Below, piece after piece: positions 29,008 to 32,000 of a DNA stretch of 32,000 nucleotides (within the stretch, counting starts at the first letter, position 1; the number at the start of each line of letters is the position of its first letter). The stretch is from Patescibacteria group bacterium (GTDB taxonomy: Bacteria > Patescibacteriota > UBA1384 > XYA2-FULL-43-10): positions 120,001 through 152,000 of the forward strand of contig JBAYVT010000001.1 in the NCBI GenBank assembly GCA_041674405.1, given 5' to 3'. Below the pieces are notes generated by a model, which searched no databases, had not been told where the DNA came from, and worked only from the letters and a program-made list of their open reading frames with translations. Made by a program: the position numbers and the translations under genes.

Positions 29008-32000
29008 TTATTTAATCCTCGAGATTCCGATCCAAATTTTCTCACCGTCGATACAGAATTCTTCTGAACCTTCCGGGTTTTCGATTTTTCCGTCAGTGCT
29101 TTCTTTCGCTAGTACTTCTTTGGCAATAATTTCCGACATTGATTTCATCACTTTTTTCAATACCTCTCCCGATGTAGCGTAATTTACAACTATCCTGTTC
29201 TCAACTTCAAACCCGGACTTTTTGCGTAGCGATTGGATGTTGCGGATGAGTTCCCTGGCAACACCTTCGGTTTTTAATTCGTCAGTTAATACCGTATCAA
29301 GCTCGACGCCTGTCTCCCCTACTCCGGAATTCTTATCTCCTTCGTCAATATGAATATCTCGTGCGTCGACATAAACTACTTTTTTCACATTTACTTCTTC
29401 AGCAATGATTGTTTCCAAATCTTCAGACAATTTTTTACCGGAATATTTTAGAAGAGCTAAAGGCTGGCGAACTTTTATTCCCGCTTCCGATCTTTTGGCT
29501 AAGCCAGCTTCAACAATCTGCCGTGTTTCTGCCATCTCATCCAGAACAGAAAGATCAAATTCTTCCGGTGCGGGGAAATCGGCCAAGTGTACCGATTCCG
29601 GATCACTTTCTTGCTTTAGGCCCTGATACACGGTTTCGGCGAACATCGGAGTAAACGGCGCCAAGAGTTTCGATAAGCCGATCAAAACTTCATACAAAGT
29701 ATGATATGCCGATTCTTTATCGCTGTCAGACTCCGATTTCCAAAATCTGCGGCGTGAGCGGCGGACATACCAAGTAGAAAGTTCGTTTATAAAATCAAGA
29801 ATCGTATTTGCCGGTCTGTAGGTATCATAGTTATCCAATGATTCGGTGATGGTTTCGGTAAGTTCGTTAAACTTCGCAAGGATCCATTTGTCTAGAATGT
29901 TTGTAGCTTCTGTTTTTCCGCTCGGCTTCCAACCGTCGATTGATGCGTACATAGAAAAGAATGAATAAACATTCCAAAGCGTGATAAATAGGTTGCGGGA
30001 AACAGACAAAACTTCTTTTTCTGAAAAAAGCTTCGGCTCACCGGGCTGATTCACAGAATAAAGGAAGAAGCGGACGACATCGGCGCCAACTTTCTCAAAT
30101 TCAGCCATCGGCTCGACAATGTTTCCCTTCGACTTCGACATTTTTTGCCCTTTTTCGTCTAGAATATGTCCTGTCGAGATAACATTTTTAAAACAAGAAT
30201 TATTTTTTACAATCGTCGAGATCGCGAGAAGCGTGTAAAACCAGCCTCGGGTTTGATCGATCGCTTCGCAAATGAAATCAGCCGGGTACTGCTCAGCAAA
30301 GAGTTCGCTGTTTTCGAATGGATAGTGATATTGGGCGTATGGCATGGAGCCGGAATCGAACCAGACATCCATCACTTCTGGAGTTCGTTTCATCGTTCCG
30401 CCGCATTTGCAGGTGAATTCAACCTCATCAACAAATGGTTTGTGAGGATCGAAGGCAGTACCGTCAGAATTTAGATAAAATTTATGAGATAATTCATGAT
30501 CAGGGCGTTCGTGTTGGAAGTATCCAGAATAATCCAAGTTCCCTAAAATCATGTTCAATGCACCATTAATGGCCCCGTGTGCAACAATAACGATTGTCTT
30601 ACCAGGATATTCTTTTCCAATCTTGGCTAAAAATTCTTTGACCCTTTCTACAACATCAGCTCTCGTTTCCCCCGTGGTGCCAAGCTTAAAATTAAATCTT
30701 TGTTCAGGAATTTTCTCAGTCACCAAATAATCTTGAAAATCTTTCCTGTCAAGTCTTTGTTCGGGTGTAAGCTCATTCCATTCGCCGGAGTCCAGCTCAA
30801 TGATTCTGTCGTCGAATATCAATTCCGCATCTACATGTTTCTTAACGATTTCTGCGGATTGCTTTGCTCTCAACACCGGAGAAGATATTATTATGTCAAC
30901 TTTGTCCTTTATTTTTTTTGCGGTTGTTTCCACCTGAGTCACACCCTTCTCTGTAAGAGGCCATTTATCAAGCGCTTTTGAATCAATATCAAGAATGTTT
31001 CTCTCCGTTTCACCGTGTCGGACAAAGATCAATTTCGTTACCTTAGTATTGCTCTCGTTGAAATCCATAAAATTGCCAACGACTTTTTTCTCGTCACACT
31101 TGTCGCAAGTCCAGACCGGGAGCGGCGTCCCCCAATATCTGTCACGGGAAATTGCCCAGTCATTGATATTTTCGAGCCAATTGCCAAAACGGCCGTGCTT
31201 TAAGTAGGCTGGGTTCCAGTTGATTGTCTCATTATTTTCAAGAAGCTCATCTCGAAGTTTCGACATCGCGATATACCAAGAATCCTTGGCAAAGTAGAGA
31301 AGCGGTGAGTCACAACGCCAGCAGAACGGATAATCATGGGCGAACATCTCTTTTTTAAATAATATTCCACGTTTTTCAAGATCGAGTTTCACTTCTTTGT
31401 CGGCGTCTTTGACAAAGCTTCCTTTGCCAGCGCCGGCAAGCTCCGTCCCCTTTTCATCAACGGTCTTTAAAACCTTGATGCCGTTCTTGCGAAAACCAAA
31501 TTCGTAATCATCCTCACCAAATGCCGGGGCAATGTGGACGATGCCGGTGCCGTCTGAATCGGTGACAAAATCGGCGACAATCAGCTTGTAAACTTTCTCT
31601 CCACCTTCAGAAAATTTATCTCCGTCCGGATAAATCGCTTCGTAATCCGGTTTGTCGGTGAAAGATGGGGCAGCAATTTCCGAACCGGTCAGCTCTTTAA
31701 TGACATTTGCACCAGGCAAAACGGCATCGAGACGGCTTTGCGCAAGTATATACTTCTCTCCGTCTTTTTCTGCCAAAACGTATTTGATATTCGGGCCAAA
31801 TGCTAGAGCGGCGTTGCCTGCGAGCGTCCAAGGCGTTGTCGTCCAGACAAGAAAATACGCATCTTCATGATTTGATTTAACCTTGATATAGACTGATTCC
31901 TCTTCAACATTCTTGTATCCCTGGGCAACCTCATGAGAAGATAACGCCGTACCGCAGCGCGGGCAATATGGCACGACTTTGTGGCCCCTGTAAAGCAAAC
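29008..32000 (-). CDS. ileS: Isoleucine--tRNA ligase, type 2 (5' end outside window), carrying an inserted domain
   Basis: It shows [23 protein letters not shown]. The editing-domain motifs are [13 protein letters not shown] and [17 protein letters not shown]. Further motifs are [35 protein letters not shown] and KMSKSKGN. The 'M' at 31998 in the ORF track is an internal TTG Leu (..GLLYRG..), so the gene continues beyond nt 32000. Confidence 0.95.
   Translation of the reverse strand, partial: [996 protein letters not shown]
30454..31047 (-). other. Histidine-phosphatase domain inserted within IleRS (residues ~318-515 of the listed ORF)
   Basis: The segment [15 protein letters not shown]...[12 protein letters not shown]...[14 protein letters not shown] lies between the knuckle WTCDKCDE and the motif [34 protein letters not shown]. 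It is in frame and has no stops. Confidence 0.8.

Follow-up and report, generated by a model that had tools for sequence, protein, structure and literature searches.

A histidine phosphatase domain nested in the CP3 hairpin of a patescibacterial type-2 isoleucyl-tRNA synthetase

The stretch of DNA analysed here, called the window below, comprises 32,000 nucleotides of a Patescibacteria group bacterium (assembly GCA_041674405.1, contig JBAYVT010000001.1, positions 120,001 to 152,000). Its last 3 kb carry, on the minus strand, ileS (29008-32000, stop codon 29008-29010), the gene of a type-2 isoleucyl-tRNA synthetase (IleRS) that holds an in-frame histidine phosphatase domain. The open reading frame (ORF) occupies 29008-31998 and encodes 996 of the 1173 residues of the full-length product; the 5' part of the gene lies beyond the window end, and its 177 codons outside the window were read from loci L001 and L002. 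Residues of the insert motifs are numbered as in the window ORF, and the addition of 177 gives their positions in the full-length protein. A sequence-only reading of the window had placed a phosphatase domain at 30454-31047 (ORF residues 318-515). This placement holds, with the correction that the gene runs on the minus strand and that its N-terminus is cut off by the window edge.

Judged by its sequence, the host protein is a housekeeping type-2 IleRS of a Patescibacteria (Candidate Phyla Radiation, CPR) bacterium with intact synthetase motifs. The full-length protein from L001 scores 904.3 bits against the ileS equivalog model TIGR00392 (cut-off 621.4), and its best solved relatives are IleRS2 8c8v (E=2.9e-203) and the Thermus thermophilus enzyme 1ile (E=3.9e-192). 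The Pfam order in the window protein is tRNA-synt_1, His_Phos_1, tRNA-synt_1, Anticodon_1 and DUF5915, and the C-terminal region is thus of type 2 (Anticodon_1 and DUF5915) and not the domain that binds zinc in IleRS1. Within the CP1 editing domain are found the Thr-rich motif TTTPWT (31825-31842) and a 15-residue editing-site motif of the GTG(I/V)VH...D type (GTGIVH...D, 31507-31551), and the isolated editing-domain structures 1wk8 and 1udz align to this region (E=1.4e-31). The class-I signature KMSKS (30130-30144, residues 619-623), WFDSG and DQTRGWF are likewise present, so that the editing motifs, KMSKS and anticodon-binding region are as intact as they had appeared from the letters of the sequence. 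The HIGH position, which belongs to the N-terminal part outside the window (L001:6013-6600), reads GIHH. This GXHH variant of HIGH confers mupirocin hyper-resistance on IleRS2 (bioRxiv 10.1101/2023.01.31.526100).

The phosphatase is inserted into CP3. Relative to solved IleRS2 enzymes, the extra segment, composed of short linkers and the whole phosphatase domain, spans 30457-31086 (residues 305-514; alignment with 8c8v and multiple alignments). The 8c8v alignment breaks between query residues 304 and 515, which correspond to chain residues 465 and 485, an excess of about 190 residues. Just upstream of the insert stands CDKC (31096-31107, residues 298-301), which forms the N-terminal half of the zinc knuckle of CP3; downstream of the insert come DPHKPFVDE (30424-30450, DPHKP at residue 517) and then CKCGG, the C-terminal half of the knuckle (30397-30411, CKC at residues 530-532). 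Between the CxxC and CxC halves the extra length amounts to about 195-210 residues (about 30454-31086), and in a multiple alignment the stretch compared across this site measures 84-87 residues in plain IleRS2 versus 266-290 in the fused enzymes. The two Cys pairs presumably have their counterpart in T. thermophilus IleRS in its second zinc site. The sequence-only reading had noticed the abnormal distance between the CxxC and DPH(K/R)P-type motifs and had put the excess at about 195 residues, translated in frame as one polypeptide; both observations agree with the alignments (190-210 extra residues, with the sequence in register on both flanks). The characterized IleRS enzymes of Priestia megaterium, T. 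thermophilus, yeast, Candida and S. aureus contain no homologous segment at this place.

Both termini of the phosphatase come together where the CP3 hairpin turns at its tip, between the halves of the zinc knuckle, and the synthetase sequence resumes in register on either side; one polypeptide should therefore contain both folds. About 30 residues separate the insert from the downstream WFDSG, which we take to be part of the isoleucine-binding pocket (Trp518 in the T. thermophilus structure). A CP2-CP3 linker motif of 16 residues (31111-31158) lies about 30 residues upstream; in yeast IleRS the corresponding linker, 453-ARDWNVSRNRYWG-465, lines the pocket for the CCA end of the tRNA, which is the reveromycin A site (PMC7955072). 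The alignment break falls at Candida IleRS residues 497/498, inside CP3 (residues 473-534), a region that bridges CP2 and the Rossmann fold's second half, contains a zinc motif in T. thermophilus and differs in topology from one solved IleRS to the next (PMC7191050). With this location in CP3 and the CCA-pocket linker just upstream, the insert sits on a peripheral, variable hairpin whose base is near the synthetic site. The domain had been described as embedded in the catalytic core. The nesting is correct, and CP3, a peripheral and variable insertion of the Rossmann fold, is the better name for the place than the core.

His_Phos_1 (PF00300) matches 30493-31032 on the minus strand (residues 323-502), nested within the PF00133 match as had been expected, with 108.7 bits in the whole protein against a cut-off of 21.7 (E=3.8e-31) and 113.6 bits in the excised insert (E=1.2e-32). 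Reading of the sequence located RHGETERN with Arg327, the nucleophile His328 and Asn334 (30997-31020), SPVLRAKQS with the second phosphate-binding residue Arg377 (30856-30882), IIELDSGEW with the general acid/base Glu401 in an ExxxGxW motif (30778-30804), and VAHGA with the second catalytic His474 (30571-30585). The RHG near the start and the xHG near the end that had first drawn attention to the segment thus belong to a full R/H/R/E/H set. Using a domain hidden Markov model (HMM), 249 homologous His_Phos domains were extracted, and residues were counted in the 197 single inserts among them. The first Arg, the nucleophilic His and the second Arg are each retained in 196, the Glu in 184 (with Asp in 11 more) and the second His in all 197, while tandem inserts keep the catalytic residues in both copies. 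The insert is a complete and apparently active histidine phosphatase, and the pattern of conservation indicates that its catalytic residues are under selection.

Structure prediction places the same segment among phosphoglycerate mutase (PGAM)-like folds. An AlphaFold2 (AF2) model of the insert with its flanks (pTM 0.75, core pLDDT 85-95) shows an independent PGAM-like domain, and Foldseek comparison with the PDB gave as its best matches PspA (4ij5), GpgP (4qih), PhoE (1h2e) and the Entamoeba phosphoserine phosphatase, all with probability 1.00 and a target TM score of about 0.7. That ExxxGxW is present and mutase-specific residues are absent suggests the phosphatase-type and not the mutase-type branch of the superfamily. 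Assignment to a sub-family was rejected, since the insert scores below every NCBIfam cut-off (bits/cut-off: dPGM_arch 90.7/225, PspA 81.6/350, CobC 81.0/162.9, GpmB 51.3/261, SixA 32.0/74.5).

Such a gene could also be an artefact, produced by an assembly chimera, by a frameshift between two genes or by a spliced-out intein-like element. The locus was retrieved from other assemblies with the downstream 206-residue phosphatase gene as query, and the same fused gene was found in three independent ones, namely Logan SRR6484325 (67-kb contig), ENA ERZ27247358 (396 kb) and JGI 3300037067 (6.6 kb), with 1173 residues wherever the gene is complete. A chimera, of which the earlier reading had warned, is excluded by these three assemblies and by hundreds of divergent homologues with an in-frame insert at the same site. 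No Pfam match to an intein, Hint or LAGLIDADG/homing-endonuclease domain was found in the window protein; its insert junctions (...NTK|VTK... and ...GTAF|DPHKP...) have neither the +1 Cys/Ser nor the terminal His-Asn of inteins, and there is no discontinuity in guanine-cytosine (GC) content across the insert. An intein or mobile element was rejected on these grounds, and the probability that remains for any artefact is negligible. The fusion is real, and the observation is confirmed far beyond chance.

The fused gene is far from unique. A word-indexed search with the junction region produced 15 fragments that combine PF00133 and PF00300 at 33-41% identity, all with the insert at the same site. 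A junction-spanning profile built from these fragments was run against 1.84 billion cluster representatives (50%-identity clusters): 668 scored E<=1e-30, and the best 150 (E<=4.5e-70) all match, 137 of them over flank, insert and flank in a single stretch and the rest, mostly multi-copy or second-site proteins, in pieces. Fused IleRS is accordingly present in at least 150 distinct 50%-identity clusters, almost all of them from Patescibacteria. In a GTDB survey with one genome per species the insert was found in at least 56 species loci, from Paceibacteria/Parcubacteria groups, Minisyncoccia, Peregrinibacteria/Peribacteria and metagenome-assembled genomes labelled Saccharibacteria, and the GC content of the fused loci ranges from 0.30 to 0.63. 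A few fused records are labelled as non-CPR organisms (Sedimentisphaerales, Spirochaetia, Gammaproteobacteria); these labels are given as recorded and may reflect binning errors.

In an approximate neighbour-joining tree based on the synthetase body, the fused proteins form one large clade separate from non-CPR IleRS2, with a very divergent fused IleRS (L085) outside it. The tree, in which three unfused Patescibacteria sequences fall within the fused clade, fits one old insertion followed by occasional loss. The fusion is a lineage-wide trait of the CPR/Patescibacteria, old and widespread. The expectation that related genomes would share the fusion has been borne out many times over, and of the earlier view of it as a singular case the fusion itself stands and the one-off character does not: homologues were already in public databases under generic names. 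The window protein itself is in GenBank (accession MFA7243836.1) under 'class I tRNA ligase family protein [Patescibacteria group bacterium]', a generic name from the Prokaryotic Genome Annotation Pipeline (PGAP) given in place of isoleucine--tRNA ligase although the protein passes TIGR00392, and one JGI homologue fragment is annotated as 'broad specificity phosphatase PhoE'. The generic naming is a weakness of annotation, possibly caused by the insert.

The association of IleRS with this phosphatase family takes several forms. The IleRS proteins of Peregrinibacteria/Peribacteria (about 1470-1490 residues; L050-L056, L059, P0146) have two tandem His_Phos domains at the CP3 site, and an IleRS fragment (P0123) has four copies. 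In P0259 the CP3 is untouched and the phosphatase occupies a second site, the loop that opens the anticodon-binding domain, and three further proteins (P0130, P0191, P0218) combine one domain at CP3 with one at this second site. Other enzymes occur in the same company in single representatives. P0264 (L089:8001-12686, locus GC 0.58), from a cluster with 13 members on contigs of up to 2.1 Mb, is an IleRS with two GNAT-type inserts besides the phosphatase, and in the fused IleRS P0214 a P-loop kinase of the AAA_18/AAA_33/zeta-toxin-like kind, whose Walker A motif reads GACGAGKTT, lies between WFESG and DQTRGWF. The leucyl-tRNA synthetase (LeuRS) of the window genome, a protein of 1145 residues encoded about 3.5 kb upstream of ileS and outside the window (L001:1-2432), contains a NUDIX domain (E=1.8e-14) nested just after its CP1 editing domain, and the Nudix box of this domain is perfect (GGIEPGESIVDTAKREILEETG); the insert recurs, its box intact, in at least some 26 other LeuRS fragments from Patescibacteria. 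In these searches His_Phos went with IleRS and NUDIX with LeuRS, and not the reverse.

Such pairings could mean that the synthetase has in the phosphatase a third catalytic site, which acts in cis on the tRNA or on a nucleotide bound to IleRS. It might, for instance, strip a 2'/3'-phosphate (or a pyrophosphate or cyclic-phosphate remnant) from the CCA end and thereby make damaged or toxin-modified tRNA-Ile chargeable again. Several features are consistent with this: the anchoring of the insert about 30 residues after the CCA-pocket linker (PMC7955072) and about 30 before WFDSG, the recruitment of one family to IleRS at two sites and its multiplication there, the intact and recurrent NUDIX pyrophosphohydrolase nested in LeuRS of the same genome, and the P-loop kinase of P0214, reminiscent of the way in which RNA end healing combines a kinase with a phosphatase. 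Against it, the closest relatives of the insert by sequence and by fold all act on small molecules, and the second insertion site is near the anticodon-binding domain, far from the CCA end. A basic surface charge was sought in the inserts as a sign of RNA binding and not seen; their median isoelectric point (pI) of 6.4 and median net charge of -2 equal those of the standalone relatives. No member of the histidine phosphatase superfamily is known to act on RNA 3' ends, which also counts against action in cis. We consider this explanation rather unlikely.

The insert evolves much faster than the synthetase around it. At 75.7% identity over the whole protein, P0216 (locus L088) is the nearest relative. 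The borders of its insert are the same, and identity to the window protein is 85-92% in the synthetase body versus 42-54% in the insert. Non-synonymous divergence (dN), compared alone because synonymous sites are saturated even against this closest relative, reaches 0.43 in the insert, against 0.07 in the N-terminal and 0.17 in the C-terminal body, so that outside its catalytic residues the insert changes about six times faster than the synthetase N-terminal body. The standalone phosphatase encoded beside ileS is 52% identical between the window genome and L088. Since its divergence is similar to that of this standalone paralogue and its active site is kept, the insert resembles an ordinary accessory enzyme and not a decaying remnant. 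The window insert shares 43-49% identity with free-standing Patescibacteria phosphatases (P0009-P0020) versus a median of 29% with most other inserts, which makes exchange between embedded and free copies possible.

Fast change and occasional loss would suit a passenger, that is, a generic phosphatase in a permissive loop, kept for an unrelated activity or just for stabilizing CP3. The structural variability of CP3 among IleRS enzymes (PMC7191050) agrees with this, as does the fate of the zinc knuckle, which is gone in about half of the fused proteins as if the insert braced the hairpin: of 168 fused homologues, 75 retain both Cys pairs and 71 have neither, with few intermediates. From these counts it looks as if the inserted domain can stand in for zinc in bracing the CP3 hairpin. 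A purely structural role leaves the near-invariant catalytic residues of more than 200 domains unexplained, however, and a random insertion does not account for recruitment to a second site, duplication up to fourfold and copies beside ileS. Nor does a passenger explain the partner specificity of IleRS for His_Phos and of LeuRS for NUDIX, and we regard this alternative as distinctly improbable.

Downstream of ileS, two small genes follow on the same strand. The start codon of a GNAT acetyltransferase gene (28534-29007; Pfam Acetyltransf_7/1/10) comes directly after the ileS stop codon, and the gene is probably co-transcribed with ileS. The standalone histidine phosphatase (27921-28541; 206 residues, Pfam E=4.1e-40, catalytic residues present) overlaps the GNAT stop by 8 nt, so that ileS and these two genes (27921-29007, minus strand) are packed like an operon. 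The standalone protein is 33% identical to the window insert and might be a dimer partner of the embedded domain. Its orthologue in the closest relative directly follows the fused ileS (L088:11480-12103), where the GNAT gene is absent, and the very divergent fused ileS of L085 has a standalone His_Phos gene just upstream (L085:6001-6576) whose product is 32% identical to the insert of that ileS. At 33% and 32% identity, recent copying of the standalone phosphatase into ileS was rejected.

Further neighbours of the fused ileS in single genomes (L088:1636-7555; L001:2441-5251; L085:2959-3474) are rich in small enzymes related to nucleotides and aminoacyl compounds: an APH-family kinase (in both close relatives), a HIT hydrolase, a YbaK-like tRNA_edit protein, prolyl-tRNA synthetase (ProRS), CYTH, a standalone NUDIX protein and HD_4 (a SpoT-type hydrolase). 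When the larger collection of loci is considered, none of these is conserved. Only the closest relative (L088) retains APH, the standalone phosphatase, RNHCP and GrpE near ileS, and because the neighbourhood is not conserved beyond close relatives, the context gives no pathway.

The presence of such enzymes raises the question of self-protection, in which the phosphatase, together with the GNAT, kinase and NUDIX domains of related synthetases, would inactivate natural inhibitors of class Ia synthetases, whether mimics of aminoacyl-adenylates or others. GNAT and HIT enzymes detoxify aminoacyl-nucleotides of the microcin C type. Related IleRS proteins also contain GNAT (P0264) or P-loop kinase (P0214) domains, and NCBIfam has a curated model of GNAT-IleRS (NF040702); in the window ileS is directly followed by a GNAT gene, L001 and L088 encode an APH-family kinase and a HIT hydrolase in its vicinity, and the host has the GXHH variant associated with mupirocin hyper-resistance in IleRS2 (bioRxiv 10.1101/2023.01.31.526100). 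However, histidine phosphatases cleave phosphomonoesters, whereas the known adenylate mimics have diester-like, sulfamoyl or phosphoramidate links. The window GNAT shows no detectable kinship to the embedded GNAT of P0264 (E=0.98) or to solved toxin or immunity GNATs, so a role as a tRNA-acetylating toxin or as kin of the IleRS-embedded GNAT is not supported. Membership in a known anti-phage defence system was rejected, with no PADLOC match at E<=0.01 among eight proteins (the insert and neighbouring small genes). With neighbours that are not conserved either, self-protection appears highly unlikely.

Elsewhere in the window, a 537-residue protein with lamin-tail domains (LTD) and a weak OB-fold/DUF5689 match is encoded on the minus strand at 5816-7429. 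Around it are the housekeeping genes queA, queH, tsaE and ruvA/B/C, LytR, a PGM/PMM phosphomutase and a glycosyltransferase block, and a short ORF of 135 residues from the TsaD family, possibly tsaB, lies near it.

The reading that we favour, with a confidence somewhat better than even, is a working IleRS with a tethered, active phosphomonoesterase that is kept by selection. The synthetase part would charge tRNA-Ile as usual, and the insert would hydrolyse a phosphomonoester by way of phosphorylated His328, Glu401 serving as acid/base. Homology makes a small phosphorylated metabolite or nucleotide the likeliest substrate. Retention on IleRS would be the result of selection and not of accident: the pairing arose at two sites, underwent tandem duplication and is accompanied by standalone paralogues beside ileS, which together suggest that tethering itself was selected. 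Some observations weigh against this reading. Three unfused Patescibacteria IleRS nest inside the fused clade, so the insert is dispensable in some lineages. As the fastest-evolving part of the protein, it is also compatible with weak constraint. None of the NCBIfam equivalogs reaches its cut-off, and these models thus point to no substrate class. Finally, no homologues of GNAT, APH, CYTH, NUDIX, RNHCP, GrpE or ComEC were found within 6 kb of ileS in 80 other loci.

Aminoacyl-tRNA synthetases are highly conserved and well studied, and most of the internal insertions known from bacteria serve in editing or in tRNA binding. In the present case a second, unrelated enzyme with an intact active site has become part of IleRS in much of a very large bacterial radiation; it was gained two or more times, at separate sites, and multiplied up to fourfold, and LeuRS has its NUDIX insertion in parallel. 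A selected connection of isoleucine charging with an unnamed phosphoryl-transfer reaction is implied, and possibly a new translation-attached function in minimal genomes. A bolder proposal is that the insert forms a third site in cis, at the tRNA 3' end or for a nucleotide of the synthetic site, and that class Ia synthetases of the CPR (IleRS for His_Phos, GNAT or kinase domains, LeuRS for NUDIX) serve as scaffolds for enzymes of tRNA-end repair or of the destruction of nucleotide toxins aimed at synthetases. We hold it as a tentative idea to which we give a low probability; if true, it would represent a previously unrecognized layer of translation quality control.

No published description of an IleRS-histidine phosphatase or a LeuRS-NUDIX protein was found in the literature searched, including recent work on the structure and evolution of IleRS and a 2026 domain-insertion survey, in agreement with the sequence-only reading, which knew of no synthetase with an internal phosphatase. 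Comparison with characterized systems therefore concerns the parts and their arrangement. The IleRS2 enzymes of P. megaterium (8C8V) and T. thermophilus (1ILE), of the eukaryote-like and mupirocin-resistant type, share with the window protein the order of Rossmann fold, CP core, CP1 editing domain, CP2 and CP3 with its Cys4 zinc knuckle, followed by KMSKS, the anticodon-binding domain and the type-2 C-terminal domain (DUF5915). The window protein differs from them in about 190-200 extra residues of the CP3 hairpin, which form a second enzyme domain, and in GIHH at the HIGH position. With the short phosphatase-type proteins PspA (4IJ5), PhoE/YhfR (1H2E), GpgP Rv2419c (4QIH) and CobC the insert has in common the fold, the R-H...R...E...H set, a length of about 200 residues and ExxxGxW(E)G. 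In contrast to these free-standing proteins, it is nested, and a C-terminal return segment leads its chain to the point where it entered.

Covalent unions of such domains have precedents of other kinds. The curated family NF040702, 'isoleucine--tRNA ligase, N-acetyltransferase domain-containing', is also an IleRS with an extra, unrelated enzyme domain, but the window protein is not a member (308.7 bits versus a cut-off of 1999), and its GNAT is a separate downstream gene. A histidine phosphatase is joined to a second enzyme in 6-phosphofructo-2-kinase/fructose-2,6-bisphosphatase and in the mycobacterial RNase H/acid phosphatase Rv2228c (NF005567), with whose phosphatase half the insert scores 77.7 bits. 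Those two are end-to-end fusions with a known metabolic logic, whereas here the phosphatase is nested within the fold of a tRNA synthetase. The LeuRS-NUDIX protein of the same genome is likewise a class Ia synthetase of the CPR with an internal hydrolase, an intact catalytic motif and a recurrent distribution over divergent lineages, and it differs from the fused IleRS in its host enzyme, in the site of insertion, which follows the CP1 editing domain, and in the hydrolase family.

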